This document shows, one piece after another, positions 26,808-42,076 of a stretch of DNA of 64,000 nucleotides. Location of the stretch: assembly GCA_015232395.1 (NCBI GenBank), contig JADFZT010000013.1:1147-65146 (forward strand), in the 5' to 3' direction. The position numbers and the translations under genes were made by a program. The stretch is from Magnetococcales bacterium. GTDB lineage: Bacteria; Pseudomonadota; Magnetococcia; Magnetococcales; JADFZT01. The notes beneath the pieces were generated by a model. The model was not told the origin of the DNA, ran no database searches, and saw nothing but the letters and a program-made list of their open reading frames with translations. Position 1 is the stretch's first letter. Every line of letters begins with the position of its first letter.

Positions 26808-27032
26808 TTATTTAAACAGCCCTGTCCGGGAAACCGAGAATCCCGGAATCACAGCGGAGGTATGGAAGCCGATTAATCGGTAGAGGGGGCAAGATCGGTA
26901 GACTCCGGTATAAAGCATGCTTAGACCGAGCAGCCATAACGTTGGCCTGAAGAGTCTTAGTGCCACGAAAATTAGCGTGATGCCCATCACGATCCGTAGG
27001 AACCGATCCCAACCGCCGACATTGATATTCAT
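26808..27032 (-). CDS. DUF2892 (YgaP-like) small membrane protein
   Basis: MNINVGGWDRFLRIVMGITLIFVAL...YTGVYRSCPLYRLIG is the DUF2892 pattern (NxGxxDRxxR, two TM helices, CP.Y motif). Confidence 0.75.
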   Translation of the reverse strand: MNINVGGWDRFLRIVMGITLIFVALRLFRPTLWLLGLSMLYTGVYRSCPLYRLIGFHTSAVIPGFSVSRTGLFK

Positions 27033-27103: not shown

Positions 27104-27700
27104 TCATCTTCCATTGGTTTTTTCTTCAATGCTTTCAATCGAATGGCAGAGACCATAGGTCACCAGAAACGGTATGTCATACCGTTTGCCTGCCACCTCT
27201 ACTTCATAGATGCCCCGGCGGGTATCCTGCTTCCAAACCACACGATAGTGGGCGAACTGACCCGGTGCGGCAGCAAATTTCAACTTGATTTCACGGGTGA
27301 TTTTGCTGCCGATCTGAAAGCCCAATGTCTTGGATAGTTTTGTCTGTGCCTTGGCTTCCACCAGGGAGAGGAGATTCGCCCCCAGACTGCCGCTGAAATC
27401 CTGACTTCGATCCAACTCCATGGAGGTGTCGGCAGTGCGTGAAAACAGGTGCTCGCTGACCAGGGGTTTCTCACCAAAGCGGTTGTCCAGCGGGACATCT
27501 TCGGTGGAGAGCGCAACGTTATTATCCTCCAGGATCGTTTCTCGGATGATGCGCACGGTAGCGGTTGGGTGTGCCAAGGCGGTTTTTTTCTTTTTCTTGT
27601 GGGGCATTGATTTGGCCGTATGCTGTTTTTTCTCAGCTAAACGCATGATGGCTGCCGCACCAAGGTAGCCAATGGCGATAACGGGAAAAAAGTGAATCAT
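27104..27700 (-). CDS. Hypothetical membrane-anchored protein (198 aa)
   Basis: N-terminal TM helix, a Lys-rich linker (HKKKKKT), then a beta-rich domain. Lies between the CDF-NifX and DUF2892 genes on the same strand. Confidence 0.5.
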   Translation of the reverse strand: MIHFFPVIAIGYLGAAAIMRLAEKKQHTAKSMPHKKKKKTALAHPTATVRIIRETILEDNNVALSTEDVPLDNRFGEKPLVSEHLFSRTADTSMELDRSQDFSGSLGANLLSLVEAKAQTKLSKTLGFQIGSKITREIKLKFAAAPGQFAHYRVVWKQDTRRGIYEVEVAGKRYDIPFLVTYGLCHSIESIEEKTNGR

Positions 27701-27738: not shown

Positions 27739-28998
27739 TTAATAGCCATTTCCCGATGCAGGAAGGTGGAGGGGGAGGGGGCGCACATCCGCCAACGCAT
27801 TGGCTAACGCATCCGCTACCCGCTCATGGGGCGTTTCCCGCACTTCCACTCCAGCATCCGACAACACATAAGAAAGACCTTTACCGTCGAGAGCCGTGCG
27901 TGTCAGTACCAAGTCGACATGATGGTTGACCAACCACTTGCCGAGTTGAATCCCTTTGCCATGTTCCAGGGTTATGAAGGGGTTTGTATGGATGCTTCCC
28001 GCATCTGCATTTCCGCTGGAGTTTTCGATGGTTGAAAGATAAAAAGAGTGAGCATGGCAAAAACAATCCTCCAGCAGACGACCTTCCTCGCTTACCGGTA
28101 TGGCACAAACAATATAATCCGCACTCACAGGCGAGCTGTGGATGAGCACCCGTTCCAGATGTGGAACCTCATTCCGAATGGCTGTTTCCATGCGGCGACA
28201 CGCGGTTTCAGCCTTAACCAGATTGTGGGTACGCAGGATCACGGCTGCTTCCAAAAAACGATACCGGCCGGCATTGCGTCCGGTGACCGACTTGACTTCA
28301 ACCGTCAAGGGGTCCGACTCAAGAATGGATTGAATTTTGTGTAGGGTTTCGGAATCCAGGCTGGCATCCAGCAGTGCCCGCATGGCCTCACGGGACAGCT
28401 CCCAGCCGGTTTGGAGAATAAACACGACAACGAATAGACTGGCCCACCGATCCAAATCCCAGCCGATATATTGCCCGCAAAGGCCCAACAGGACGGCCCC
28501 AGAGGAGAGCGCATGCATGCGAAACTCTTCACCATCGGCAATGATGCTGGGTGAATTGGCCTGTTTACCAATCCGCAACTCATAGGCGCTGAAGAGCACG
28601 GGAATGACAAGCGAAAGGATGACACCGGTCAGAATCGGCCACGTCACCTTAACGCCGTCGCTGGTCGACAGGATGGCTTCCTTGGCTATTTCGTATCCAG
28701 CAAGAAAAATGAGAGCCGCAATGGTCAATGCAACGATATTTTCGACTTTGTACAGACCATAGGGAAAATCAGCCGATTTTTTGCGTGACAGTTTGAGGCC
28801 GGCTATAACGCCCACCGAACCGACCATATCCACGAAATTGTGCAGCGCTTCCGCCATCACAGCGATACTCCCGGAAAACCATCCCAAAACGACATTCAGA
28901 AAAATGAGCAACACGTTCACGCCCATGGACATCCATCCGACACGCTCCAGTGTTTGGTCGGATGGAATCTGATTCGGTTGGGTGGCTGTTTCGGGCAT
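27739..28998 (-). CDS. Cation diffusion facilitator (CDF) transporter fused to a C-terminal NifX/NifB-like (dinitrogenase FeMo-cofactor-binding family) domain
   Basis: CDF motifs (SIAVMAEALHNFVDMVGS, DFPYGLYKVENI, six TM helices). The C-terminal ~110 aa (YIVCAIPVSEEGRLLEDCFCHAHSFYL...HVDLVLTRTALDGKGLSYVLSDAGVEV) resemble the PF02579-type fold. Start moved to the ATG at 28998 (GGAG RBS, MPETATQ...) rather than the longest ORF (29151). Confidence 0.7.
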   Translation of the reverse strand: MPETATQPNQIPSDQTLERVGWMSMGVNVLLIFLNVVLGWFSGSIAVMAEALHNFVDMVGSVGVIAGLKLSRKKSADFPYGLYKVENIVALTIAALIFLAGYEIAKEAILSTSDGVKVTWPILTGVILSLVIPVLFSAYELRIGKQANSPSIIADGEEFRMHALSSGAVLLGLCGQYIGWDLDRWASLFVVVFILQTGWELSREAMRALLDASLDSETLHKIQSILESDPLTVEVKSVTGRNAGRYRFLEAAVILRTHNLVKAETACRRMETAIRNEVPHLERVLIHSSPVSADYIVCAIPVSEEGRLLEDCFCHAHSFYLSTIENSSGNADAGSIHTNPFITLEHGKGIQLGKWLVNHHVDLVLTRTALDGKGLSYVLSDAGVEVRETPHERVADALANALADVRPLPLHLPASGNGY

Positions 28999-29047
28999 AT
29001 TTTGAACTCCGGTTGTTCGTTGATAAAGGATGCTTGTGTAAAGACAG

Positions 29048-29064
29048 CGCATAAGCCATGCCAG
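29048..29064 (-). promoter_or_regulatory. Candidate sigma-54 (-24/-12) promoter for the CDF-NifX operon
   Basis: The minus strand reads CTGGCAT-GGCTT-ATGCG (GG and GC correctly spaced), about 50 nt upstream of the ATG at 28998. Confidence 0.5.
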
Positions 29065-29261
29065 CACCTGGAATGATGGATGGTGCTTGAGGTGACAGCG
29101 TGCAAGATGATGAAATATATGTGAAAAATAAAAACATTGATCCTGTGTCAAATGAATCCTGCATGTATGTTGGGTTGACGTACCATCCGTATTTATCTAT
29201 TATTGGCACGCCATTATTTGTGTTTAATGGCCATTTTTGACTCTAAACTGGAAAGAGCCCC

Positions 29262-30626
29262 ATGGCCTTGCGGCAACCCATCCCCTCGCCATCCAAAAAG
29301 GCCATGAAAGATCTGGCCAACATTCACGATCCGGCCATCCTTCTGGATTCAACCTTCCAAATTTTGGCAGCCAACGAGGCCTACCAGGAAGAGCTCGGTG
29401 GCGAAAAATCTCTTGAAGGGTTGCACTGCTATGAGGTTTCACACGGATTTGATCGGCCCTGTGACGAAGCTGGGGAGTGCTGCCCCCTCAAGGCCAGTAT
29501 GGAATCAGAACATGCCGAGCGCATGCTGCATGTGCATCAGTCCACCAAAGGGTGTGAGTTTGTCGATGTCGAGATCCGTCCCATCCGGGACAGGCGCGGC
29601 AAGGCGCGGTATTATTTGGAAATATTGAGGCCAACACTGGTCGCCAGTGCCGAACCAACCCCGGTTGGATTGGTTGGCAAGGCTCCGGCATTCAACCAGA
29701 TGCTGGAACTGGTGCAACGTGTGGCCAAGGAGCAGACAACCGTCCTGCTGCTGGGGGAGTCCGGCACCGGCAAGGAGTTGATCTCCCGGGCCATTCATGA
29801 AGGAAGTGATCGGAGCAAAAAGCCTTTCGTTCCCGTCGAATGCTCCGGGCTTGCGGACAATCTGTTTGAAAGTGAGCTGTTTGGCCATAAAAAGGGGGCC
29901 TTCACCGGGGCCTATTTTGACAAGCCCGGTCTGATTGAAGCAGCACATGGCGGTACGCTGTTTTTGGATGAGATTGGCGAGGTCTCCGCGCAGATTCAGG
30001 TCAAATTGTTGCGCCTGTTGGAAACCCAAACTTTTCGCAGAGTAGGGAGTACGGAGGCTAAATATGTGGATTTCCGCCTGATTTGCGCCACCAATCGCAA
30101 TTTGGCAGAGATGGTCAAAACGGGTCTTTTCCGCAAAGATCTCTATTATCGAATCAGCATATTCCCCATCCAATTGCCCGCGCTTCGTGATCGCCGGGAG
30201 GATATCGGTCTGCTGGCAAACTCCCTGCTGAGACGCTATCCAGGAAAGAAAAATTATTCTCTTTCCAAGGAGGCTTTGAGCTGCCTGGGTGAATACGCTT
30301 TTCCAGGCAATATTCGTGAGCTGCAAAACCTGCTGGAGAGGGCCAGAATTTTAGCCAGTGGCCATCAGCTGAAGCCGATGCATTTTCCGGGTATCTGTGG
30401 GGAAGCCGCGCCAGTTGCATTCAGTCAGGCACACGATTTCCAAAACCACACGACCGATGAAGAGAGCCTTTTTCAAATCAAAGGAGTTCAAACCTTGGAA
30501 GCTGTGGAGGCTCTCTATATGCGCCATATCTTAGCCACCTTTCCCGGCAAGAGAGAGGCGTTGGCAAAAAAGCTGGGCATCAGTCTGCGTACCTTGGTGC
30601 GCAAAATCAAAACCGCCAAGGCGTAA
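29262..30626 (+). CDS. Sigma-54-dependent transcriptional activator (Cys-rich PAS-like sensor, AAA+ domain, Fis-type HTH)
   Basis: Walker [15 protein letters not shown] loop ([15 protein letters not shown]), Walker [10 protein letters not shown]-finger region, C-terminal HTH ([18 protein letters not shown]). The N-terminus contains [22 protein letters not shown]. Confidence 0.9.
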
Positions 30627-31436
30627 CAGAGACCCGTTGGCAGCTCTCTTTTTCAGCCTTCTTTTTTTTGGTTCGCACCTGTTGTCTGCCTGTCGTCTTC
30701 CACCTGAATGGTTATCAGCCTATTGTTTTCCTCCTGAATAGGGTTAAACCGCCTCTGGGTGGCGCTTGGACTCTGTTCCCCTGTCTTGGACAGATCAACA
30801 TAAGCAAGCCCTGCCACCAAAAACAGTGCCATCGTCATCAAAGGCCAAACGGGCTTCCTTGTTCCTGAAAATGCACACATCTGAACGCTCCATTTCTGTG
30901 GTTGCGGCATCAATACAATTTCCAAAACTGAAACTGACCTACCGCATGAACTGAGCCAAGCCACATTTTTGTGTCGTTCGGTGGGTATGTTTATGTTCCA
31001 CCTATTTGAATTAAAACGATAAAATAATATGCGTTCATTTGGGTGGCGTTCAGCTGATGTGGGGTGGCTGTTGTTGATTAAGACAAAATTGGCGCGCCAT
31101 TTTTGGATGTTTATTCCATCAATTGGCTTGTTTGGGAGGCGTGATGCCATGGACCAGCTTTCGCCGTCCGATCATTTCAGGTGTGGTGTCATGGCTTGTT
31201 CTGGGGGAGGCGGAGAGGGTGAAGCATTTGTCTGTCACACGACTCTTTTCAAAATAAGGTCATTGTTGGCTTGTTTGTTCGTGTAGTGGCGCGACAAAAA
31301 TGACCTTTTTCTGGTCTATTGCAAACTGTTTTTCGGGCAAAATAATGTTTAATTCATGGCTAGAATTATATTTTCAGACGTAATTACAATCAAATAGAAC
31401 GATCCCCACCAAAATGGCCGCTCCTGGCCAAATGCC

Positions 31437-31452
31437 TGGCATAACCCTTGCC
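31437..31452 (+). promoter_or_regulatory. Candidate sigma-54 promoter upstream of the 80-aa ORF
   Basis: TGGCAT-AACCC-TTGCC, 60 nt upstream of the ATG at 31512. Confidence 0.55.
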
Positions 31453-31511
31453 GTATCAGTCCAACAGAACAAGAGCTAACCATTCGTGCCGATGGCGGGA
31501 CGGAGGTGTTT

Positions 31512-31754
31512 ATGAAAAGTGGAACTCAACTCGCAACCCCGAAAAATTATCGGCAACTCCGAGCCTATATCCAGGCTGAAATAGAGGCCTTTCGCATCAA
31601 TTCAGAAAAATGGGTTTTGGCGTTGTTCAGACAAATTCCTGCACAACCAACCCCGGAAGCCATTGAGGCCTTGAATCTTTGGATGGATCACTACCTGCCG
31701 AAGCGGACGCTCCGCGAAATGGCATCCAAATTTTATCCACACAGGGATTCATGA
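31512..31754 (+). CDS. Hypothetical small protein (80 aa)
   Basis: ATG with a GGAGG-like RBS, downstream of a sigma-54-type promoter. No family recognised. Confidence 0.45.
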   Translation: MKSGTQLATPKNYRQLRAYIQAEIEAFRINSEKWVLALFRQIPAQPTPEAIEALNLWMDHYLPKRTLREMASKFYPHRDS

Positions 31755-31876: not shown

Positions 31877-31892
31877 TGGCACTACTGTTGCA
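31877..31892 (+). promoter_or_regulatory. Consensus sigma-54 promoter upstream of DUF2892-norCBQ...D
   Basis: TGGCAC-TACTG-TTGCA is an exact match to the TGGCAC-N5-TTGCA consensus. It lies 114 nt upstream of the ATG at 32006. Confidence 0.7.
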
Positions 31893-32005
31893 AAAGGGTT
31901 TGACGAAACAGCAGAAAAACGGGGTCCAAATGGCGTGATGAGCGATGAGCGCTTAAGTGCGCCTGATTGACCCGTTCAACCCATCGAATCAAGGAGGATT
32001 TAACC

Positions 32006-32212
32006 ATGCAGGCAAATGTGGGTGGTGTGGATCGACTGTTACGCGTCGTTGTTGGTGTTGTGTTGATTTTACTGGTCTTTATGGGGCCAAAAACCATTTT
32101 TGGGTGGGCCGGTTTGATTCCATTGCTGACCGGCATTTTCAAGTTTTGTCCATTCTATCCTCTCTTTGGGTTGAACACCTGCCCAGCGGACCAACAGGCG
32201 TTGTCTGCCTGA
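32006..32212 (+). CDS. DUF2892 (YgaP-like) small membrane protein
   Basis: MQANVGGVDRLLRVVVGVVLILLVF...LTGIFKFCPFYPLFG. AAGGAGG RBS. Paralogue of 26808-27032. Confidence 0.75.
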   Translation: MQANVGGVDRLLRVVVGVVLILLVFMGPKTIFGWAGLIPLLTGIFKFCPFYPLFGLNTCPADQQALSA

Positions 32213-32239
32213 TCCATCTGTAAGAGGAGTGACCTGAAG

Positions 32240-32680
32240 ATGAGTGAAAAGTTTACCAAATCCATGGCCCGTAACATCTTTTATGGCGGCAGCCTGTTTT
32301 TCATCCTGCTCTTTTTGGGGCTGACGTTGGACACCGTACGCAAGCTACCCAAGCGTGACCATCGGGAAAATATCACCCCCCAGGTGGTCCTTGGAAAAAA
32401 AGTTTGGGAGGACAACAACTGTATCGGTTGCCACACCCTGCTCGGTGAAGGGGCCTACTTTGCCCCGGAGTTGGGGAATGTTTATGCCCGTCGGGGCGGA
32501 GACGATGGGGGTAAGGCGTATATCAAGGGGTGGATCGCGGCCATGCCCACGGAAGATCCCGGACGGCGGCAGATGCCCAATTTCAATCTGTCTGAGGAAG
32601 AGCTGGATGCGATAGCGGAATTTTTAAAGTGGTCCGGTGAGATCGACACCGCCGGATGGCCGCCGAACATTGAAGGTTAA
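32240..32680 (+). CDS. norC: Nitric oxide reductase subunit C (membrane-anchored cytochrome c)
   Basis: N-terminal TM anchor, haem-c motif CIGCHTLLGEGAYFAPELG, immediately upstream of norB. Confidence 0.9.
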   Translation: MSEKFTKSMARNIFYGGSLFFILLFLGLTLDTVRKLPKRDHRENITPQVVLGKKVWEDNNCIGCHTLLGEGAYFAPELGNVYARRGGDDGGKAYIKGWIAAMPTEDPGRRQMPNFNLSEEELDAIAEFLKWSGEIDTAGWPPNIEG

Positions 32681-32693
32681 GGGAGACATATAG

Positions 32694-34079
<1,386 letters not shown>

Positions 34080-34154
34080 ATGCTCTCCAGGAGGCGGACC
34101 CGAAGTTGAAACCGGTCCGCCTCCGCAATCCATCCTACCCGACAGGAGCCTGCC

Positions 34155-34964
34155 ATGGACATGAAAACCCCAGACCATTTAAACCGGAAAGTGCCGTTCT
34201 ACCAGCCGGTTGGCAACGAAGTGGAACTCTTCGAATATGCCTATCACAACCAACTGCCGTTGCTCATCAAAGGTCCGACTGGTTGTGGCAAAACCCGTTT
34301 TGTCGCGCACATGGCCAGCCGTCTCGCTCGTCCCCTGTTTACCGTTGCCTGCCACGATGATTTGACTGCACCGGATTTGGTGGGGCGTCATCTGATCGGA
34401 GATGGGGCAACCTACTGGAACGATGGTCCCCTGACCCGGGCGGTACGCCAGGGAGGTATCTGCTATCTCGATGAGGTGGTGGAAGCCCGCAAGGATACCA
34501 CCGTCGTGTTACACCCCCTGGCGGATCATCGGCGCAGTCTGCCCGTTGAGCGTACCGGTGAGGAGCTGGAGGCACCGCCGGAATTCATGCTGGTGATCTC
34601 CTATAATCCCGGCTACCAAAATTTACTCAAAGGGTTGAAACCCAGCACCCGACAACGATTCGTCGCTTTGAGTTTTACCTTGCCACCTCCGGATCTCGAA
34701 AAAAAGATTCTCAGCCAGGAAAGCGGTGTGGATAGCGCCTTGGCGGGACGCCTGGTCAATCTGGGCAATGCACTGAGGGGGTTGAAGGATCATGATCTGG
34801 AGGAGGCTGTCAGCACACGGCTGCTGGTCTATGCTGCCACCCTGATCCACGGTGGTTTTTCTCCAGAAGCGGCATGCCGCGCTGCCTTGGCCGAGCCGTT
34901 GAGCGACGACCCTGAAACCGTCGATGCCCTGATGGAGGTGATCCGTGCCACCTTCGGTCGTTGA
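34155..34964 (+). CDS. norQ: NorQ/CbbQ/NirQ-family MoxR AAA+ ATPase
   Basis: Walker A GPTGCGKT, Walker B CYLDEVVEAR, CbbQ-like C-terminus, and position after norB. Confidence 0.9.
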   Translation: MDMKTPDHLNRKVPFYQPVGNEVELFEYAYHNQLPLLIKGPTGCGKTRFVAHMASRLARPLFTVACHDDLTAPDLVGRHLIGDGATYWNDGPLTRAVRQGGICYLDEVVEARKDTTVVLHPLADHRRSLPVERTGEELEAPPEFMLVISYNPGYQNLLKGLKPSTRQRFVALSFTLPPPDLEKKILSQESGVDSALAGRLVNLGNALRGLKDHDLEEAVSTRLLVYAATLIHGGFSPEAACRAALAEPLSDDPETVDALMEVIRATFGR

Positions 34965-35958
34965 TATTCCAGAATCACGATATTCCATCAAATCGATCGC
35001 ACGACCTCTACGGCTCCACCAGCGTTTGCAACGTTGGCGTCTGCTGAGCCGGGGGCTGTTTTTTTTCCTGTTTCTCTGTGCGCCGGTGTTGGACCTGTTT
35101 CGGTTGGATCTGTACGCCGGATCGTTCGTCTTTTTCGGTCGCCACCTCTCCTTGGGCCTGTCTCCATTCCTCAGAGAAGGGGGGATGGATCCGGTGGCGG
35201 CGGGAGTTTCCGTTCTGACCCATGCCATCCTGCCGGTGCTGGCTATCATCGGCTTGGTCGTGGTGGTCTCCTGGCATTTTGGGCGGCTTTATTGCGGTTG
35301 GCTCTGTCCCCATTTTTCAGTGGTGGAAATGTTGAACGGCCTGATGCGACGCACCTTGGGAAAACCCACTTTTTGGGAACGTCGGGATAGCTCTTTTTCT
35401 CCACCAGGCCGTTTGCTCGCCTGGCTCCCGGTAGCCGCTGCCGCGCTGGCCATGGCCTTTATTTGGGCCGTATCCATGCTCACCTATCTTTTGCCGCCGG
35501 AGGTGGTTTTTCAGAATCTGCTTCATGGTCACCCAACCCCCAATCAGTCGCGTTTTTTAGGGGTCGCCACCGGTTTGCTGTTTCTGGATTTTTTATTTTT
35601 TCGCCATCTGTTTTGCCGCTTCGGTTGTGCGGCGGGTCTGTTTCAAAGCCTTGTCTGGATGGGCAATCGCACCGCCCTGACTCCCCTGTTCCAGCGACAG
35701 CGTGCGGTGGTCTGTCAAGAGTGTCCCCAATCCTGCGATACGGTGTGCCCCATGCGCCTGAAACCACGTGGCGGCAAAAATCGAATTGCCACCTGCACCC
35801 AGTGCGGATTGTGCACCCAAGCGTGTGCCCGGGAGCGGCAGGATACACCCGGCAGCCCCCCCCTCGGTTGGCAGCGGGGTGAGAGGGTTTCATCACTTTC
35901 CGGTAGCTATGTTTCACTGCCAGATTCCATCTCTGCCAAGCAGATGGACAGGAGCTGA
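34945..35958 (+). CDS. Membrane-bound polyferredoxin (NapH/FixG/NosR-C-terminal-like 4Fe-4S protein)
   Basis: TM helices with CX3CP-type motifs (YCGWLCPH, CRFGCAAG). Two ferredoxin-type clusters (CQECPQSCDTVCP, CTQCGLCTQAC). Overlaps the norQ stop by 20 nt. Confidence 0.65.
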   Translation: MPPSVVDIPESRYSIKSIARPLRLHQRLQRWRLLSRGLFFFLFLCAPVLDLFRLDLYAGSFVFFGRHLSLGLSPFLREGGMDPVAAGVSVLTHAILPVLAIIGLVVVVSWHFGRLYCGWLCPHFSVVEMLNGLMRRTLGKPTFWERRDSSFSPPGRLLAWLPVAAAALAMAFIWAVSMLTYLLPPEVVFQNLLHGHPTPNQSRFLGVATGLLFLDFLFFRHLFCRFGCAAGLFQSLVWMGNRTALTPLFQRQRAVVCQECPQSCDTVCPMRLKPRGGKNRIATCTQCGLCTQACARERQDTPGSPPLGWQRGERVSSLSGSYVSLPDSISAKQMDRS

Positions 35959-35960
35959 TC

Positions 35961-37802
35961 ATGGAAGAGTGGGTAGGCCTCCAGTGGGACCGTTTGATCA
36001 GCCAACGTTCGACACGGCGTTATCCCCAGGCCCGGGTGAGGCTGGATGAGGTCAAGAGAGCCGTCGGTATTCTTTTTCGGGCGATGGGCGGGGCTGGCGG
36101 TCTGACGGTGGAGGCGGTTGACGAACAGCGTCACCACGCCCGGCGCGATTGGTGGCAGCGCATCGCCGGGAGCCATTTGAAGGCCCCCTGGTTTTGGTGC
36201 GATGACCGGGCGTTGCGTATGCCCGCAGAGCTGGACCTCTTCCCAGAGCGTTTACTCAATCGTGAACTCTACCTGTGGTTGGCCGCTCTGGCCGCTCTGG
36301 GTGAGGAGAGCAGCCAGGGCGATTGGTTTGTTCGCAACCAGGCGCATGTGCAACAGCTTTTGCAAATGTTTCCAGGGTTGCGATCCCGTTATCAACGACT
36401 GCTCAACGCCCATCTGCTGCAGCGACCGGATCCACTGCAACTGGCAGCCCAAGAGCGGGCTATTGAACTGGCTATCCGCACCGCCCTGATCAAACCTGGC
36501 TGTGTGGCGACGCTGCCCATGGGACGCTACCCTCCCTGGCCGGTGCCGTTATGGTCCCATCCCAATCCGCCCATGGGTCCACACGCAGGCGCTTGGAAAA
36601 ACGATGCCGATCTGACCCCAGGTGAACCGTCGGGCCAGAGCCAAAGCGAGACGCACCAAAAAACCAGACAGGCCGTAGGAACCGATGCGCCACAGGAGGA
36701 GGGGGGCTTGATCCTGCACCGCTTTGAATCGATCTTTAGTTGGGCCGATTTTGTCAAAGTGGATCGCTCTACGGACGAAGAGGAGGATTTGGATGCCGCT
36801 CAGAAGAGCGCTGATGATCTGGATAAGCTACATGTGACCCGGGACCAAAAACCGGCTGCCAAACGTTTGCGTTTTGATCTGGATCTCCCCTCGGAGGCCC
36901 AAGATGAGACCCCTCTGGGGGAAGGCCTTCTCGTGCCGGAATGGGACTATCGCAAACGTATCCTACGACCCAATCATTGTCACATTCAGCCCATGGTTGC
37001 AGCCAATGCGCCTGCCTGTGAGCTGCCCGACGCTCTGCAGCGGCCTGCCCATCGGCTGAAAAACCAGTTTGAATCCCTGCGCCTGGGGCGGAGCTGGCTG
37101 CGGCGGCAGCGGGATGGGGCTGAAGTGGATCTGGATGCGTTCCTGGATTTTCAGAGCGAACGCCTGTCGGGGCAAGCCTCGACTGAGGATCGCCTCTATC
37201 GGGATTCTCGGCTCCAGGAGAGAGATCTGGCTTGTCTGCTTTTGGCAGATCTTTCCCTCTCCACCGACACCTGGGTCAACGATGAATTACGGGTGATCGA
37301 CGTGATCCGTGATGGGCTGTTTTTGTTTGCCGAAGCGCTTTCTGCCACCCGGGATTCCTTTGGGCTGTTTGGCTTTTCCTCCAGACGCCGCGAGCACGTC
37401 CGTTTTCATGAGATCAAACCGTTCCACACCCCCTATGGCAGTGATACCCGGGGTCGCATCCAGGCGCTGCGGCCTGGTTTTTACACCCGCATGGGTGCGG
37501 CCATCCGCCATGCTTCGACCATTTTGGAAAAACAACCGGCGCAAAAGCGTCTCTTGCTGCTGTTGACCGACGGCAAGCCCAACGATATCGACCAATATGA
37601 GGGGCGCTATGGTGTTGAGGATACCCGTATGGCGATTTTGGAAGCGAAAAAACAGGGCATACACCCTTTTTGCGTCACCATTGATCGGGATGCGGAGCGT
37701 TATGTCAGCTATCTGTTCGGCCCAGGTGGTTTTGCCCACATTCATCGCGCTTCAGAGCTTCCGCAAAAACTGCCGCAACTATACGCTCGGTTAACGGGAT
37801 AG
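35961..37802 (+). CDS. norD: NorD (von Willebrand factor A domain NOR accessory protein)
   Basis: 613 aa. C-terminal VWA domain with a MIDAS-like LLADLSLST and LLLLTDGKPND. Sits in the nor context with norQ. Confidence 0.85.
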   Translation: MEEWVGLQWDRLISQRSTRRYPQARVRLDEVKRAVGILFRAMGGAGGLTVEAVDEQRHHARRDWWQRIAGSHLKAPWFWCDDRALRMPAELDLFPERLLNRELYLWLAALAALGEESSQGDWFVRNQAHVQQLLQMFPGLRSRYQRLLNAHLLQRPDPLQLAAQERAIELAIRTALIKPGCVATLPMGRYPPWPVPLWSHPNPPMGPHAGAWKNDADLTPGEPSGQSQSETHQKTRQAVGTDAPQEEGGLILHRFESIFSWADFVKVDRSTDEEEDLDAAQKSADDLDKLHVTRDQKPAAKRLRFDLDLPSEAQDETPLGEGLLVPEWDYRKRILRPNHCHIQPMVAANAPACELPDALQRPAHRLKNQFESLRLGRSWLRRQRDGAEVDLDAFLDFQSERLSGQASTEDRLYRDSRLQERDLACLLLADLSLSTDTWVNDELRVIDVIRDGLFLFAEALSATRDSFGLFGFSSRRREHVRFHEIKPFHTPYGSDTRGRIQALRPGFYTRMGAAIRHASTILEKQPAQKRLLLLLTDGKPNDIDQYEGRYGVEDTRMAILEAKKQGIHPFCVTIDRDAERYVSYLFGPGGFAHIHRASELPQKLPQLYARLTG

Positions 37803-37914
37803 GTATCGTCCAACGGCTTGTCCCGGTTTTTGATCAAATCCGTCCAAACTGACTCATGGAATGAGGCAGGTGTCTGCCACAGCTTTTTGGCTTAACAATC
37901 AAGGGATGAAAATA

Positions 37915-38736
37915 ATGAGTGATACGTTTGATATCAATATGGCCCGTACGGTTCATCTGAAGTGGGAATTGGATCTGGAAGCAATGGTCGCGGGAAGAAT
38001 AGAACCAACCACCCTTGAATCCCATGAAAATTGCCATTTGGGCCGCTGGCTCCATTTTGTCGGGGTCAAAAAATATCAGGACATCGAAGCGATTCACCAA
38101 TTGATTGATGTGCATCGTAACTTCCACAAGGTTGCTGACAAAATTGTCTTTGATCTCAAACATTCAAAATGGGGGAGTGTGGAAAAAAACTTGAAGCAGG
38201 TTCAAAGCATCAGCATGGATATTATCTTTATGCTGACTGTGATTGAGTTCAGCTCTTTGGAAAAACAGCGCGGGTTTCATTCTCTACCCAATCCAATACG
38301 AAAACTGATGCGCCAGCTCTTTGAAAAGGAAAATGTATCAAAACAGAACGGCCACCAAGTGCTTGAAGTCAGCCATGCCCGCCTGACCCATGTTCGTTGG
38401 TCCCGGGATCTTCTGGAAGCTTTCCGAAACAGGGGGCGTGATGTTCAATTGAGCCCTGCTGAAACATGTCCTTTGGGCGTCTGGATTCGTACTGTGGGAC
38501 TGCATAAGTTTGGTGAACTGCCGCCTATGCAAAAATTGGATGAGGCGCATAAATCATTTCACCTCAAGGCTGATCAGTCTCTGAACGCTCTGAAAAGAAA
38601 AAATGATCGTCAAGCGGATCAGGCTTATGAAGCCATGCTTCGCTATTCACAGGAAGTGATCTACCTGTTGACGATGATTGAGTATCGGCTGCAAAACAAC
38701 GATGCCATTGCCCCGCCCGTTTCGATTTCAGGGTAA
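37915..38736 (+). CDS. Protein with two tandem CZB (chemoreceptor zinc-binding) domains
   Basis: Two copies of the H..W....(n)..C.LG.W pattern (HLKWELDL...CHLGRWLH and HVRWSRDL...CPLGVWIR), each followed by a helix (VHRNFH / AHKSFH). Start could be 37906 or 37861. Confidence 0.7.
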   Translation: MSDTFDINMARTVHLKWELDLEAMVAGRIEPTTLESHENCHLGRWLHFVGVKKYQDIEAIHQLIDVHRNFHKVADKIVFDLKHSKWGSVEKNLKQVQSISMDIIFMLTVIEFSSLEKQRGFHSLPNPIRKLMRQLFEKENVSKQNGHQVLEVSHARLTHVRWSRDLLEAFRNRGRDVQLSPAETCPLGVWIRTVGLHKFGELPPMQKLDEAHKSFHLKADQSLNALKRKNDRQADQAYEAMLRYSQEVIYLLTMIEYRLQNNDAIAPPVSISG

Positions 38737-38739
38737 CTT

Positions 38740-39747
38740 TCAACAAATTCTGGGCAATGGATCCTCTTCGAGAGGTAGCAGGCGGCGTTCTCCGCCCAGG
38801 GGGGTGACCACGATCACATCGGGTTCGCCCGGTTCCAACTGCCCAATCAAGGCTGCCTGCTTTCCACCGGGCAGTGTTTTCAGGGTGGCGAGGGTGGCTT
38901 CGGCTGTTTCCGGGGCAACCACCGCCACCAGGCGACCTTCGCACGCCAGATAGAGGGGGTCGTAACCGAGAATGTCACACACCGCCCGTACCGGTTCCCG
39001 TATCGGTATTGATTCGCTGACAAGACGCACCGTCCGACCCGTCGCCAGGGCCAACTCATGGGCCACCGTCGCCAGCCCCCCCCGGGTGGGATCCCGCATG
39101 AACCGGACCCCCGGCAGGGTGCGCAGCCTCCGGGTCAGGGGATGAATAGAGGCGGAATCGGAGCGGAGATCCCCCCGCAGGCCAAACGCCTCCCGAGCCA
39201 GCATCACCGCCGTGCCATGGTCGCCCACAGGGCCGCTGACGAGCAGGCGATCACCGGATTGAATACGATCCAGGCCCAGGTTGATTTTTGGGCTACGCAT
39301 GCCAATGCCAGTGGTCGCCAGATAAAGGCCCCCCCCCATGCCATGGGGCACCACCTTGGTATCCCCCGCCACGATAGAGACGCTACACATTTTTGCAGCC
39401 TCGGCCATGGAGGCCACCAGGCGATCCAGCAGGGCATATTCCAACCCCTCTTCGATAAAGGCGTTGAGGGTGAGATAGAGGGGGTCTGCTCCGGCCACAG
39501 CCAAGTCGTTGACCGTGCCGTGTATGGCCAGGGAACCGATATCCCCCCCCGGAAAGAGCAACGGATTGACGGTAAAGCCGTCGGTGGTGATCATCGGTAT
39601 CCCGGAGGTGGGCAGGGGGAGAGCGGCGGCATCCTGATGGACATTCAGCTGGGGGTTGCCCAGGTGTTTGACGAAAATGTCGTCGATCAACTCCCGCATA
39701 AAACGTCCGCCGTTGCCGTGGGCCAGGGTGATGTGTTTATCGATCAT
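38740..39747 (-). CDS. hypE: Hydrogenase maturation protein HypE
   Basis: 335 aa. AIR-synthase-like fold motifs and the diagnostic C-terminal PRIC. Confidence 0.95.
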   Translation of the reverse strand: MIDKHITLAHGNGGRFMRELIDDIFVKHLGNPQLNVHQDAAALPLPTSGIPMITTDGFTVNPLLFPGGDIGSLAIHGTVNDLAVAGADPLYLTLNAFIEEGLEYALLDRLVASMAEAAKMCSVSIVAGDTKVVPHGMGGGLYLATTGIGMRSPKINLGLDRIQSGDRLLVSGPVGDHGTAVMLAREAFGLRGDLRSDSASIHPLTRRLRTLPGVRFMRDPTRGGLATVAHELALATGRTVRLVSESIPIREPVRAVCDILGYDPLYLACEGRLVAVVAPETAEATLATLKTLPGGKQAALIGQLEPGEPDVIVVTPLGGERRLLPLEEDPLPRIC

Positions 39748-42076
39748 GGGGCTCTCTCCTGGATTGGGCTTCGGCTTCGATGATCTGGCCGAAGGCGAGG
39801 GCTGCGTCGTTGCAGGGGATCTTCCGGTGGATCAGCAGTTGAAAGCCGTGTTGTTGGAGCAGATGGGCGGCCTCTTCGGTTAAAATCCGGTTTTGAAAGA
39901 CGCCACCGGTGAGGCCTGCGGTGGTCACCCCATATCGTTTTCGGATGGCCACGGCCTGGTCCACCAGCGCCCGGGCCAGGGTGGCGTGAACCAAGCGGGC
40001 GGATTCAATGGTGGTGCGGGCAGGGGTGGGCCACAGGGCGTGGAGGAGGGGCTGCCAATCGGTGATCAAGAGGCCGCTGGGGTCGGGCTTGAGCGGCAGG
40101 GGGATTCCCTCTTCCCCTTGCCCGGCTTGTTCGGCCAGGGTTTCCAGGTACATGGGGCCTTGGCCCTCAAAACTGGCGGTGGAGAGCACTCCCAGCAGGG
40201 CGGCGGCGGCATCGAACAGGCGGCCAACGGCGCTGGTGGCAGGGGTGTTGAGCTGCCGCTCCCAGGCGTGGCGGGCCAGGGCATGTTGGCTGGGGGTGGT
40301 GAAGGGGGCTCCGGGCCACTCAATCCCCGCTTCCCAGGCGAGCCCCAAAGCACTGCGCCAGGGCGCGCGGGCCGCTTGATCACCTCCCAGGGGTCGGAAG
40401 GGTCTGAACGAAGCCACCCGTTGCCAGCTGCCGGGCATGCCCAATAGTGCTTCTCCCCCCCACAGGGTGCCATCCGCTCCCAGTCCGACCCCATCCCAGG
40501 TAAACACCAGAAGAGGTTCCTCTCCCCAGCCATGCTCCCCAGCCAGGGCCGAGGCGTGGGCGTGGTGATGGAAGATCGGGATGACCGGCAAGTGGCTGCT
40601 TTGGCTCCATCGTGTGGCGTCATAGCCGGGATGGGCGTCACAGGCGATGCGTTGGGGTTCGATGGCATGGAGGCGGCTCAAATCAGCCATCACCTGCTTG
40701 AAAACCAGCATTCCCCGGGGGGTGGAGAGTTCGCCGATGTGGGGGGAGATCACCACCCGATTATCCCAGGCGAGGGCGATGCTGTTTTTCATCTGCCCCC
40801 CCACCCCCAGGAGTGGGGTTTTGACGGCATGGGGCAGGGCCAGTTCCAGGGGGGTGCAGCCGCGCCCCAGGCGCAAGGGTTGGGGGTGATTTTCGATCAC
40901 CCGAAAGAGGGGATCATCCGCCGGGCGGAGAATCGGGCGGTCGTGATGCAAAAATCCTTGAGCCACATGGCCCAAACGTTGGATGACCTCCTGGGAATGT
41001 GTGAGGACCGGTTCACCGCTGATGTTGCCGGAAGTGGCTACCAGAGCGCTGCCGAATGTCTCCAACAGCAGGTGGTGCAGGGGGGCGTAGGGGAGCATCA
41101 GCCCCACTTCCCCAAGAGCCGGGGCGATGGCTCGGGAGAGGGGGGCGTCCGGACGTTTGGGAGCCAGGACGATGGGCCGCATGGGATGGCAGAGTTGCCG
41201 GGCGTGCATGTTGTTCAGGGATGCCAGGGTGCGGGCCTGCTCCAGGCCATCCTCACCCGCCATGGGCACCATCACCGCCAGGGGTTTGTGGGGGCGGGGT
41301 TTGTGGCGGCGCAGGTGGTGGATGGCGGCGTCGTTTTGGGCATCGCACAGAAGGTGATAGCCCCCCACGCCTTTGACCGCCACCACCAGCCCCCCATGCA
41401 ACGCCCTGATACAGGCTGCCAAGGCGGCATCGGAGACCGCTTCGGGGTGGCTTGTGGCGTTTGTGGCGTTTGTGGCGCTTGGGCCGTGCCAATAGAGTTT
41501 GGGGCCACACGCCGGGCAGGCCAGGGGTTGGGCGTGAAAGCGACGATCCAGGGGATTTTCATATTCGGTTCGGCAGTCGGCACAGAGGGGGAAACCGGCC
41601 ATGGCGGTGTGGGGCCGGTCGTAGGGCAGCCGCTCGATGAGGGTATAGCGGGGGCCGCACTGGGTGCAGTTGATAAAGGGATAGCGATAACGCCTGGCCT
41701 GGGGGTCGTGCATTTCGGCCAAGCAGTCGTCACAGGCAAAATAGTCCGGGGGAATGGCGGCCCGGGTGGCGGGGCCTTGGGCGCTTGGGAGAATGATGAA
41801 TTCATCCTGGTGGGGCTCCCACTCCGCCTCCATGATGGACTCCAACCGGGGCTGGGCCAGGGGCGGGGGAGTGGCCAGCAATTCCCGGTTGAAGGCGGTC
41901 AGGGAGTGGGGAGCCCCCTGAATAAAAATATCCACGCGACCGGCTACGTTGCGCACCCAGCCCGTGAGGCTGTGCCCATGGGCCAGGCGATAGACAAAGG
42001 GCCGGAAACCCACCCCCTGCACACCCCCGCTCAGGGTGATGCGTTGGGCTTGGCGTTTCTGGTCACCGGCTGCCAT
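39737..42076 (-). CDS. hypF: Carbamoyltransferase HypF
   Basis: Acylphosphatase domain (GGVQGVGFRPFVYRLA), two Zn-finger CxxC pairs (CDDCLAE...CTQCGPRY; CADCRTE...CPACGP), and YrdC-like and Kae1-like domains. The start chosen here (MAAGDQKRQ...) gives a 14-nt overlap with hypD. The longest ORF starts at 42157. Confidence 0.9.
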   Translation of the reverse strand: MAAGDQKRQAQRITLSGGVQGVGFRPFVYRLAHGHSLTGWVRNVAGRVDIFIQGAPHSLTAFNRELLATPPPLAQPRLESIMEAEWEPHQDEFIILPSAQGPATRAAIPPDYFACDDCLAEMHDPQARRYRYPFINCTQCGPRYTLIERLPYDRPHTAMAGFPLCADCRTEYENPLDRRFHAQPLACPACGPKLYWHGPSATNATNATSHPEAVSDAALAACIRALHGGLVVAVKGVGGYHLLCDAQNDAAIHHLRRHKPRPHKPLAVMVPMAGEDGLEQARTLASLNNMHARQLCHPMRPIVLAPKRPDAPLSRAIAPALGEVGLMLPYAPLHHLLLETFGSALVATSGNISGEPVLTHSQEVIQRLGHVAQGFLHHDRPILRPADDPLFRVIENHPQPLRLGRGCTPLELALPHAVKTPLLGVGGQMKNSIALAWDNRVVISPHIGELSTPRGMLVFKQVMADLSRLHAIEPQRIACDAHPGYDATRWSQSSHLPVIPIFHHHAHASALAGEHGWGEEPLLVFTWDGVGLGADGTLWGGEALLGMPGSWQRVASFRPFRPLGGDQAARAPWRSALGLAWEAGIEWPGAPFTTPSQHALARHAWERQLNTPATSAVGRLFDAAAALLGVLSTASFEGQGPMYLETLAEQAGQGEEGIPLPLKPDPSGLLITDWQPLLHALWPTPARTTIESARLVHATLARALVDQAVAIRKRYGVTTAGLTGGVFQNRILTEEAAHLLQQHGFQLLIHRKIPCNDAALAFGQIIEAEAQSRREPHDR

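Follow-up and report, generated by a model that had tools for sequence, protein, structure and literature searches.

In organisms from bacteria to humans, CDF exporters play a central part in metal homeostasis, and their regulation is thought to rest on a single cytoplasmic domain; the C-terminal tail of streptococcal MntE is a possible precedent for a CDF tail. To our knowledge, structures of NifX-fold proteins without a part in nitrogen fixation (orange protein, MTH1175, TM1816) have been available for two decades without a clear cellular role being known. Among the described CDF exporters, YiiP/FieF of E. coli and Shewanella (PDB 2qfi, 3h90, 8f6e) consist of a six-helix transmembrane domain and a ferredoxin-like dimerisation domain. 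[quoted passage not shown] The orp operons of D. vulgaris are sigma-54 dependent and controlled by a PAS activator with an Fe-S cluster on three cysteines (PMC8359166), and the Desulfovibrio ORP clusters include MinD-like ATPases and Mrp/NBP35.

In a stretch of 64,000 nucleotides from a Magnetococcales bacterium (the window), one gene is, as judged from its sequence, an intact CDF-family metal-export pump with an extra NifX-fold tail domain (Table 1). A GGAG ribosome-binding site is found 8 nt ahead of the ATG at 28998, and this start agrees with the N-termini of 51 relatives. It was preferred over a TTG start at 29151 (the public 470-aa call, P0001), which was set aside because the longer ORF would swallow the sigma-54 promoter of the gene. 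The AF2 model of the fusion protein (pLDDT 86.8), which the original prediction had called for, has a six-helix core (H14-42, H45-74, H81-110, H120-147, H150-177, H183-209) and an alpha-beta cytoplasmic domain. Pfam, the AF2 helices and the alignment with YiiP agree on the predicted six-TM CDF core with its usual cytoplasmic domain, and both the HNFVD and the FPYG...ENI motif are found in the core. Cation_efflux (PF01545) matches residues 22-210 with 122.3 bits (cut-off 26.6), TIGR01297 (CDF) scores 170 bits (cut-off 82.35), and a GRNAGRYRF..E block in the ZT_dimer domain is invariant among the aligned relatives.

Foldseek matches the core model to YiiP and ZnT structures, and the likeness to YiiP/FieF (Foldseek E 6e-13, TM normalised to target about 0.7; sequence E 4e-17) extends from the domain plan to the TM2/TM5 positions of the transport site. 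The two differ as follows: the transport site is HD-EH in the window protein and DD-HD in YiiP/FieF, the cytoplasmic binuclear site H-x-D of YiiP reads H-S-S, so that part of this site has been lost, and the window protein has an extra NifX-fold domain of ~110 residues that is absent from YiiP/FieF and from every solved CDF. According to the original prediction, no characterised CDF is known to carry such a fusion, and literature searches agree; no solved CDF chain in the PDB is longer than about 334 residues, and no study was found in the literature on the role of the extra NifX-like domain in CDF fusions.

Table 1. Features of the fusion locus and of the neighbouring nor region (positions in the window; + and -, strand)
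Feature	Position	Strand	Basis or remark
DUF2892 / YgaP-like_TM small membrane protein, third gene	26808..27032	-	PF11127, E 1.7e-15
198-aa N-terminally anchored protein, second operon gene	27104..27700	-	no Pfam/NCBIfam family
CDF-NifX-like fusion gene, 419 aa, stop included	27739..28998	-	ORF, RBS, alignment with 51 relatives, three Pfam domains, AF2
C-terminal NifX/orange-protein/MTH1175-fold domain, residues ~295-404	27787..28116	-	Pfam, profile, AF2, Foldseek
Cytoplasmic dimerisation domain ZT_dimer (PF16916), residues 214-290	28129..28359	-	Pfam, 36.7 bits
Six-helix transmembrane domain, residues 14-209	28372..28959	-	AF2 helices, YiiP alignment, Foldseek
Sigma-54 type -24/-12 promoter TGGCATGGCTTATGC	29049..29063	-	pattern search; about 50 nt upstream of ATG
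Candidate activator-binding palindrome TGGCGTGCCA	29204..29213	.	about 145 nt upstream of TGGCATGGCTTATGC
Divergent sigma-54 activator, PAS_4 + AAA+ + HTH_8	29262..30626	+	Pfam
Second exact palindrome copy TGGCGCGCCA	31090..31099	.	upstream of nor-side promoters
One-mismatch palindrome copy	31287-31296		upstream of nor-side promoters
Sigma-54 consensus promoter TGGCATAACCCTTGC	31437..31451	+	ahead of 82-aa small ORF
82-aa orphan protein	31506..31754	+	alignment A5 and gene order
Sigma-54 consensus promoter TGGCACTACTGTTGC	31877-31891	+	ahead of DUF2892/norC
Second DUF2892 gene, norC, norB, norQ, NapH-like gene, norD	31967..37802	+	Pfam; NCBIfam for NapH-like

The A-site of the window protein comprises H53 and D57 of TM2 and E158 and H162 of TM5 (aligned to YiiP D45/D49/H153/D157), and the HD-EH quartet is kept in 191 of 194 close relatives. 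It is absent from the quartets named for the 18 published CDF clades (PMC5703985), and thus the substrate metal cannot be read from precedent in the characterised clades. Among the wider fused proteins the same tail is found on cores with HD-HD, DD-HD, ND-DD (tied to manganese by Barber-Zucker et al., PMC5703985) and other quartets, and therefore it appears to be a general accessory module that is not tied to one metal. An assignment of the metal from the A-site was dropped for these two reasons. The leader has no Rfam match to a metal riboswitch (NiCo, yybP-ykoY) even at E<=1. The protein would be a dimeric CDF-type proton/divalent-metal antiporter, presumably working as an exporter and most likely with a substrate of the Fe(II)/Zn(II) class.

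None of the NCBIfam equivalog cut-offs for MamB, MamM, MntE, FieF, ZitB and DmeF was reached. The best specific score was that of MamB (142.8, cut-off 350), and the others were lower: MntE (118.6, cut-off 500), MamM (111, cut-off 350), FieF (74.3, cut-off 447), ZitB (41.3, cut-off 408) and DmeF (23.9, cut-off 250). The rank of MamB and the host, a member of a magnetotactic order, would fit a magnetosome-type iron transporter, that is, a MamB/MamM paralogue serving biomineralisation, as would the magnetosome-type company in which a homolog of the second operon protein is found in L086. Such a role is nevertheless very improbable, given that the 350-bit cut-offs for MamB and MamM are missed widely, the surrounding genes are nor and hyp genes with no magnetosome genes among them, and the family is dominated by non-magnetotactic Chloroflexota. 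MamB/MamM share the CDF superfamily with the window protein, but their transport site differs and the extra domain is present in the window protein only. Identity with MamB or MamM is effectively refuted by the model cut-offs together with the gene context.

The assignment of the tail to a fold depends on the family more than on the single sequence. Nitro_FeMo-Co (PF02579) matches residues 310-401 of the window protein with 23.8 bits (E 5.5e-5), which is below the gathering score of 26.3 bits, but it is matched by 49 of 52 aligned relatives at E<=1e-3 (best 5.7e-12). Of the two Pfam families for which a search had been suggested, PF01545 was thus found directly and PF02579 at the family level, the window sequence itself staying under the threshold. 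A profile of the C-terminal segment retrieved MTH1175 (2.5e-7), TM1816 (4.7e-6) and also TM1290 and PH0822 from the PDB. The AF2 model of the segment has a pLDDT of 87.1, and its best 11 Foldseek matches in the PDB are all NifX-fold proteins (TM 0.63-0.71, rmsd 2.0-2.9 A); the top matches include the NafY core, NifX in NifEN and, in third place, the D. gigas orange protein (2wfb). Because 49 of the 52 relatives match, the profile finds MTH1175/TM1816 and the structure model is confident, the call of a NifX fold is secured. The predicted C-terminal module of ~110 residues is therefore real by family profile, AF2 and Foldseek alike, and the match to a NifX-like profile, on which the original prediction had let its case depend, is found at the level of the family.

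The more specific comparison with NifX/NafY/NifB-C stood for the fold but not for the sequence. The tail resembles 1p90 (the NafY core) and 9ian_F (NifX in NifEN) with TM 0.68-0.70, whereas its identity to NifX and NafY is 14-16%, and the segment profile reaches MTH1175 and TM1816, not NifX or NafY, placing the sequence nearer to the MTH1175/orange-protein group, which includes the Desulfovibrio proteins Orp8, Orp5 and MrpORP Di-Nase and shares both fold and Pfam family with the tail. Profile A2 missed the standalone NifX-like proteins and a profile of these missed the window tail, and thus the window domain is a divergent member. No nif genes were found among the window ORFs and locus neighbours that were annotated, and nothing suggests that the tail would bind FeMo-cofactor.

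A census of the architecture, as had been proposed, revealed that the fusion is common and not rare. At E<=1e-5 1255 homologs were found, with the three Pfam domains in nearly all of the top 120, and relatives are present in at least 549 species-representative genomes of Bacteria and Archaea. The carriers are hundreds of microbes, mostly anaerobic, and fused forms occur in Geobacter sulfurreducens, Methanoplanus and Asgard archaea. The fusion is a variant of a known transporter family, and its sequence places it in a large CDF clade, found mostly in anaerobic bacteria and archaea, that has no characterised member. Tractable hosts with a fused gene include Geobacter sulfurreducens, a Methanoplanus strain (complete genome) and Rhodopila globiformis DSM 161. 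The distribution also bears on the objection, raised already with the original prediction, that a sequencing or assembly frameshift might have joined two separate genes, one for a CDF and one for a NifX-like protein. Such an artefact is hinted at only by the source, a metagenome-assembled genome, and its probability is negligible: an alignment of 52 proteins from many phyla is collinear across the core-tail junction, and the fusions of Geobacter sulfurreducens and Methanoplanus lie in complete genomes, which together with the number of genomes rules the artefact out.

In the window protein the position of the family motif HFGEAPYF is occupied by C312-F-C314-H315-A-H317, and this CFCHAH loop corresponds to the loop with CxHFGHCE in MrpORP. 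The tails of 91 representative fused proteins have no invariant Cys or His, and the histidine of HFG is variable. Conservation is mostly confined to A, P, F, G, N-P, L and D, of which N-P, G, L and D look structural in the alignment. The tail might be a ligand-free structural add-on that has been kept by descent on an ordinary CDF exporter and, for example, gives the dimer a further contact or stabilises the cytoplasmic domain. Apart from the lack of an invariant Cys or His, this would be in line with the very different transport-site quartets that the tail accompanies and with the fact that solved CDFs work without such a domain. We regard it as unlikely, however: the domain has been retained with a well-conserved core and a confident model in Bacteria and Archaea, a Cys/His-rich loop has been gained in the Magnetococcales clade, and studied members of the family (orange protein; PMC6345978) bind metal clusters without conserved covalent ligands. 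The lack of invariant Cys and His therefore carries little weight. We infer that the tail may bind a ligand, and the proposed role as a metal or cluster sensor or acceptor that gates export is plausible.

The gene neighbourhoods of the relatives might be expected to reveal partners of the tail. Neighbours were counted at 81 loci by profile searches on stop-to-stop ORFs, and no conserved neighbourhood common to all fusion loci was found. MinD-like Fe-S ATPases are near the fusion at 41 of the 81 loci, DUF59 at 33, standalone NifX-like genes at 26, radical SAM at 25, CooT at 18, NifU at 14 and ZIP at 12. In Chloroflexota and one methanogen the fusion adjoins orange-protein-type clusters (MinD-like Fe-S ATPases, standalone NifX-like proteins, radical SAM). 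The tail could be proposed to interact with partner proteins, as a docking or hand-over site for an ORP-type machine (MinD-like Fe-S ATPases, standalone NifX-like proteins, Mrp/DUF59), and the transporter could be the membrane arm of metal-sulfur cluster assembly or disposal instead of a self-contained regulated pump. A standalone NifX-like or MinD-Fer4 gene is indeed near 46 of the 81 loci, and near 24 of the 38 whose flanks reach 5 kb or more on each side; these genes usually share the strand of the fusion, and their median distance is about 650 nt. The same pairing is found in an archaeon (L088) with a CDF that has a different transport site and, as separate genes, in ANME-2a (PMC12622379); Orp3 and Orp4 have been described with MinD-like membrane-binding helices (PMC6345978), and the sigma-54-dependent orp operons with their PAS Fe-S activator (PMC8359166) are similar in regulation to the locus described here.

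However, no ORP-type gene (MinD-like with two [4Fe-4S] motifs, Mrp/NBP35) is present within the 64-kb window, in contrast to the Desulfovibrio clusters, and there is none near any Magnetococcales, Geobacter, Nitrospira, Burkholderiales or Rhodopila locus. The linkage is concentrated in one phylum (mostly Chloroflexota), and therefore it could be inherited synteny. In our estimate the docking site is improbable, and so is the membrane arm. A bolder version takes the fusion as a Rosetta stone: NifX-fold modules would trade labile metal-sulfur species or metal with a CDF pump at the membrane, ORP clusters would be efflux-coupled trafficking or disposal machines, and the NO-linked sigma-54 regulon of the window would use the pump to clear iron or iron-sulfur-nitrosyl debris set free by an attack of NO on Fe-S proteins. 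This is quite improbable as it stands. The window domain is covalently joined to a membrane transporter, unlike the Desulfovibrio ORP proteins, and this covalent link to a pump, together with the linkage to ORP clusters in several phyla and in archaea, offers a concrete and testable hypothesis for NifX-fold proteins.

The expectation that the fusion is the first gene of a sigma-54 operon was confirmed by a pattern search and by sequence conservation. The -24 GG and -12 GC elements have the correct spacing ahead of the first gene, and TGGCATGGCTTATGC is part of a 23-nt block with 100% identity to L004, a relative that is 76% identical, whereas the rest of the intergenic region is divergent. The divergent activator gene adjoins the fusion in four Magnetococcales contigs (the window, L084, L085 and a JGI contig), and C56, C67 and C74 of the activator's PAS domain are invariant (alignment A4). 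A sigma-54 promoter combined with a PAS activator that has three conserved cysteines makes the orp operons a candidate parallel, but the cysteine spacing is C-x10-C-x6-C compared to C-x8-C-x3-C in OrpR, and the palindrome TGGCGYGCCA differs from that of OrpR (GGGCGYRTTTTGCGCCC). TGGCGYGCCA, the putative target of the divergent activator, has exact copies in the 64 kb only at 29204 and 31090 (observed 2, expected 0.37), and the copy upstream of the fusion, TGGCGTGCCA, is conserved in L004 as TGGCGCGCCA.

The second exact copy lies upstream of genes for nitric oxide reduction. TGGCAY-N5-YTGC is matched in the window by TGGCATAACCCTTGC and TGGCACTACTGTTGC only, both correctly oriented, and the genes from the second DUF2892 gene over norCBQ and the NapH-like gene to norD form a probable co-regulated operon. 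NorR, too, is a sigma-54 activator beside NO reductase genes with -24/-12 promoters, but its sensor is a GAF/non-haem iron domain and that of the window activator is a Cys-rich PAS domain; the NorR model scores 289.9 with the window activator (cut-off 476), with a match that is restricted to the AAA+ and HTH parts. The speculative link to NO stress in the original prediction thus gained some support in the window genome, where the fusion operon and the nor operon share the palindrome and both have sigma-54-type promoters, but the linkage to nor was seen in this genome only and in none of the others. We infer NO as a possible signal.

Taken as a whole, the best explanation is a CDF metal exporter with a NifX-fold tail that tunes export and, in Magnetococcales, with sigma-54/NO-linked control, and we give this combination about an even chance of being correct. 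The antiporter would move a transition metal out of the cytoplasm, and the tail would be a cytoplasmic accessory module that binds metal, a metal-sulfur species or a partner protein carrying one, whereby export would be tuned. In Magnetococcales a sigma-54 promoter under the divergent Cys-rich-PAS activator would drive the fusion together with the 198-aa protein and the DUF2892 protein; in the window genome this activator probably controls the nitric oxide reductase operon as well, and thus the cell would make the pump at times of NO production, when metal centres are in danger.

Several observations count against this explanation: PF02579 is sub-threshold on the window sequence itself, none of the candidate ligand residues in the tail is shared by all of the wider clade, the occurrence of the tail with many transport sites, including the manganese-linked ND-DD (PMC5703985), speaks against a single metal or cluster as the specific ligand or substrate, genes of the orange-protein type adjoin the fusion mainly in Chloroflexota and are absent from the window, the link to nor was seen in the window genome only, and the -12 element is degenerate in L084 and L085. 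If the explanation is true, a second, cluster-carrier-like cytoplasmic domain in a large clade would represent a new mechanism of CDF regulation or metal hand-over. In the window genome the fusion appears to be controlled together with nitric oxide reductase, which suggests that NO and metal efflux are connected in a magnetotactic lineage.

Both downstream genes that had been predicted on the same strand, encoding an anchored protein of 198 aa and a DUF2892 protein, were verified by ORF and Pfam analyses. The 198-aa protein represents an orphan family of Magnetococcales only, with ten homologs among 5.8 billion proteins; it adjoins the CDF fusion in L004, L084 and the JGI contig and is near it in L085, and the DUF2892 protein has the same position in L084 and the JGI contig. 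In L086, a homolog of the 198-aa protein is encoded beside feoB, a MamS/MamX-like gene and a magnetochrome gene. In L084 and L085, the gene immediately upstream of the CDF fusion encodes a homolog of the 82-aa orphan, which in the window is encoded on the nor side.

The window gene is an intact CDF transporter with an added NifX-fold domain. Its public annotation (P0001, "CDF transporter, Magnetococcales bacterium") corresponds to the 470-aa frame of the ORF list, which opens at TTG 29151. The ATG at 28998 is preceded by a GGAG ribosome-binding site, 8 nt upstream, and agrees with the N-termini of 51 aligned relatives; with this start the conserved sigma-54 promoter falls outside the coding region, whereas the TTG start would place it inside. 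On these grounds ATG 28998 is likely to be the true start, and the coordinates of the original prediction (419 aa) are right. Pfam identifies three domains, namely Cation_efflux (residues 22-210, 122 bits), ZT_dimer (214-290, 36.7 bits) and Nitro_FeMo-Co (PF02579; 310-401, 23.8 bits, E 5.5e-5), the last just below its gathering score of 26.3 bits. The full-length AlphaFold model (pLDDT 86.8) has six transmembrane helices and an alpha-beta cytoplasmic domain and matches the structures of YiiP and human ZnT.

The C-terminal domain, or tail, is real at the family and fold level, as had been proposed originally. PF02579 is matched at E<=1e-3 by 49 of 52 aligned relatives (best 5.7e-12), and a profile restricted to the C-terminal segment retrieves four solved NifX-fold proteins, MTH1175 (2.5e-7), TM1816 (4.7e-6), TM1290 and PH0822. 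The model of this segment is confident (pLDDT 87.1), and its best 11 Foldseek matches in the PDB are all NifX-fold (TM 0.63-0.71), including Ta1041m, TM1816, the Desulfovibrio gigas orange protein, PH0822, the NafY core, NifX bound to NifEN, and MTH1175, after which scores drop to about 0.3. The tail thus shares its fold with NifX and NafY, but by sequence it lies nearest to the MTH1175/TM1816 group of non-nitrogen-fixers.

The fusion is not rare. At E<=1e-5, 1255 homologs were retrieved; the best 120 are nearly all full-length, with 46-64% identity and all three Pfam domains. A scan of one genome per species yielded at least 549 relatives; the best 80 of these are mostly from Anaerolineae and other Chloroflexota, the rest from Magnetococcales, Desulfobulbaceae, Nitrospira, Burkholderiales, Planctomycetota, Kryptoniota, Binatia and the cultured Rhodopila globiformis. 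The alignment of relatives crosses the domain junction collinearly, which, together with the number of relatives, rules out the assembly or frameshift artefact that had been raised as a concern. In the closest relative (76% identity; Magnetococcales locus L004) the fusion is called as 297 aa, yet tblastn covers residues 1-418, so that the short call probably reflects an assembly frameshift there or a pseudogenised copy.

The architecture is visible to any domain annotation pipeline, and common, and the gene will not surprise a database user; we would class it as an uncharacterised variant within a known family of transporters. The earlier statement that no characterised CDF with this fusion is known agrees with the literature searches, which found no paper that describes or tests it, and none of the solved chains matched by the full-length model exceeds about 334 residues, so that no solved CDF carries such a tail. 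The fusion physically connects the field of CDF regulation with that of the orphan NifX-fold/orange-protein systems.

The transport site is conserved but unusual. In the alignment with E. coli YiiP, H53 and D57 occupy the TM2 positions, E158 and H162 those of TM5; this HD-EH quartet is invariant in alignment A1 and occurs in 191 of 194 close relatives. It is absent from the quartets named for published CDF clades, i.e., HD-HD, ND-DD, DD-DD, DD-HD, EN-HD, HH-DH and HD-(E/H)D (PMC5703985). Among NCBIfam models the protein passes that of the superfamily only, with MamB, MntE, MamM, FieF, ZitB and DmeF all far under cut-off; thus, the metal is not readable from precedent. A magnetosome role was rejected on the MamB and MamM scores and on gene context.

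The fusion belongs to a large clade spanning Bacteria and Archaea. When the CDF core alone was searched against 1.84 billion representatives and the matches were classified by quartet and tail, NifX-like tails were found on HD-HD (30 representatives), HD-EH (10), DD-HD (7), HD-QD (4), ND-DD (4) and HD-ND (3) cores, and on further quartets; for example, ND-DD forms occur in Lokiarchaeota and Helarchaeota, an HD-QD form in Methanoplanus and an HD-ND form in Geobacter sulfurreducens. Conserved in the tails of 91 fused representatives are A299, P301, an F-G-x-A-x-x-F motif, N339-P340, G349, L356, D362 and G374, and the histidine of the HFG motif is frequent, not invariant. This pattern argues against a tail dedicated to a single metal and for a general accessory of the clade. 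It also makes a model in which the tail holds a fixed covalent ligand less likely. In the Magnetococcales clade to which the window gene belongs, the HFG loop has turned into C312-F-C314-H315-A-H317; in the Fe-S-binding Di-Nase domain of MrpORP this loop carries the Cys/His-rich motif CxHFGHCE (PMC6345978). The tail would bind a metal, a metal-sulfur species or a partner that carries either, and so modulate export. The main rivals are that it is an inert structural add-on or a docking site for ORP-type machines.

Neighbours at 81 loci were identified by profile searches on stop-to-stop ORFs, with cluster-representative annotations checked. There is no universal neighbourhood among them; recurrent neighbours are a MinD-like ATPase with 4Fe-4S motifs (41 loci), DUF59 (33), a standalone NifX-like protein (26), a radical SAM enzyme (25), CooT (18), a metallo-beta-lactamase-fold protein (18), a methyltransferase (17), NifU (14), DUF364 (14) and a ZIP transporter (12). 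An ORP-type gene (standalone NifX-like or MinD-Fer4) is nearby at 46 of the 81 loci, and at 24 of the 38 with at least 5 kb on each side, at a median distance of about 650 nt. This is the gene set of the Desulfovibrio orange-protein (orp) operons (PMC6345978, PMC8359166), and in ANME-2a the pairing of CDF and ORP-type genes exists as separate genes (PMC12622379). The signal is concentrated in Chloroflexota and recurs in one Kryptoniota locus, one Desulfobacterales locus and the archaeon Methanoplanus, whose CDF has a different transport site; the 64-kb window contains no ORP-type gene. ORP-type clusters adjoin CDF-NifX genes in Methanoplanus (L088) and a Chloroflexota genome (L003), with two MinD-like Fe-S ATPases, standalone NifX-like proteins, radical SAM and DUF5320, and this adjacency in an archaeon and a bacterium suggests a link between transporter and cluster. 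Elsewhere, the neighbours in G. sulfurreducens are ferritin, peroxiredoxin, ZIP, a metallo-beta-lactamase-fold protein and OsmC, and in one Magnetococcales genome the fusion adjoins NikR, CbiMQO and ZnuA.

In Magnetococcales the fusion forms part of a conserved sigma-54/activator unit. L004, L084 and a JGI contig share the gene order CDF fusion, 198-aa anchored protein, DUF2892. A divergent PAS-sigma-54 activator adjoins the CDF gene in L084, L085 and the JGI contig; in L085 the 198-aa homolog is on the activator's side. Only ten homologs of the 198-aa protein were found among 5.8 billion proteins, and all six of those with a named source come from Magnetococcales MAGs; the one in L086 has feoB, feoA-DtxR, a MamS/MamX-like gene and a magnetochrome gene as neighbours, which hints at an iron connection. 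Given this link, the nearest CDF relatives and the ZIP, ferritin and Fe-S neighbours, the fusion would export a divalent transition metal, with the Fe/Zn class as the most plausible.

No riboswitch was found at the fusion gene. A 23-nt block upstream of it, AGGTGCTGGCATGGCTTATGCGC, which includes a -24/-12 sigma-54 motif, is identical in L004, where the remaining spacer has diverged; L084 and L085 likewise have the -24 element TGGCATG, with poor -12 elements. The palindrome TGGCGTGCCA, kept in L004 as TGGCGCGCCA, is located about 145 nt upstream of the window promoter. Exact TGGCGYGCCA palindromes occur only twice in the window versus 0.37 expected, one on each side of the activator gene, and probably represent the activator's binding site. 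The only two window matches to the strict consensus TGGCAY-N5-YTGC follow the nor-side palindromes and precede an 82-aa ORF, the second DUF2892 gene, norC, norB, norQ, a NapH-like gene and norD. This order implies that NO reductase is under sigma-54 control. The link to NO, offered as speculation in the original prediction, has therewith gained the nor-side palindrome and promoters, and we infer only for this genome that the fusion would be co-induced with NO reductase.

The activator's PAS_4 domain contains C56-Y-E-x-S-H-G-F-D-x-P-C67-D-x-x-G-E-x-C74-P, and none of the three cysteines varies among three Magnetococcales orthologues. In the sigma-54 activator OrpR, which serves the orp operons, three PAS cysteines carry a redox-sensitive [4Fe-4S] cluster (PMC8359166); the resemblance makes the domain a candidate Fe-S redox or NO sensor, although cysteine spacing (C52, C61 and C65 in OrpR) and DNA palindrome differ.

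Coordinates of the features discussed
Feature	Sequence	Position	Strand
CDF fusion	window	27739-28998	-
Upstream stretch coding only with the TTG start	window	28999-29151	-
198-aa anchored protein	window	27104-27700	-
DUF2892/YgaP-like_TM, first	window	26808-27032	-
DUF2892/YgaP-like_TM, second	window	31967-32212	+
Activator	window	29262-30626	+
Palindrome, CDF side (TGGCGTGCCA)	window	29204-29213	
Palindrome, nor side	window	31090-31099	
Palindrome, one mismatch	window	31287-31296	
Strict sigma-54 match, first	window	31437-31451	+
Strict sigma-54 match, second	window	31877-31891	+
82-aa orphan	window	31506-31754	+
NapH/MauN-like protein (Fer4_5)	window	34945-35958	+
CZB-domain protein	window	37861-38736	+
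hypE and hypF	window	38740-42157	-
Closest CDF-fusion relative	L004	8001-9244	
Orphan homolog	L084	3102-3362	
Orphan homolog	L085	5132-5431	
198-aa homolog	L086	8001-8573	
ORP-type cluster	L088	10398-13500	
ORP-type cluster	L003	1-2601	

Each putative sigma-54 operon contains one of the two DUF2892 paralogues, both with a C-P-x-Y motif. The 82-aa protein, which heads the nor operon here, is homologous to the small ORF directly preceding the CDF fusion in L084 and L085; this orphan family (82-99 aa; invariant W36 and Y-L-P) has no Pfam or NCBIfam match. The NapH/MauN-like ferredoxin-type membrane protein, encoded between norQ and norD, is an unusual nor-cluster member; a chemoreceptor zinc-binding (CZB) domain protein directly follows norD, and the hydrogenase maturation genes hypE and hypF adjoin the cluster.
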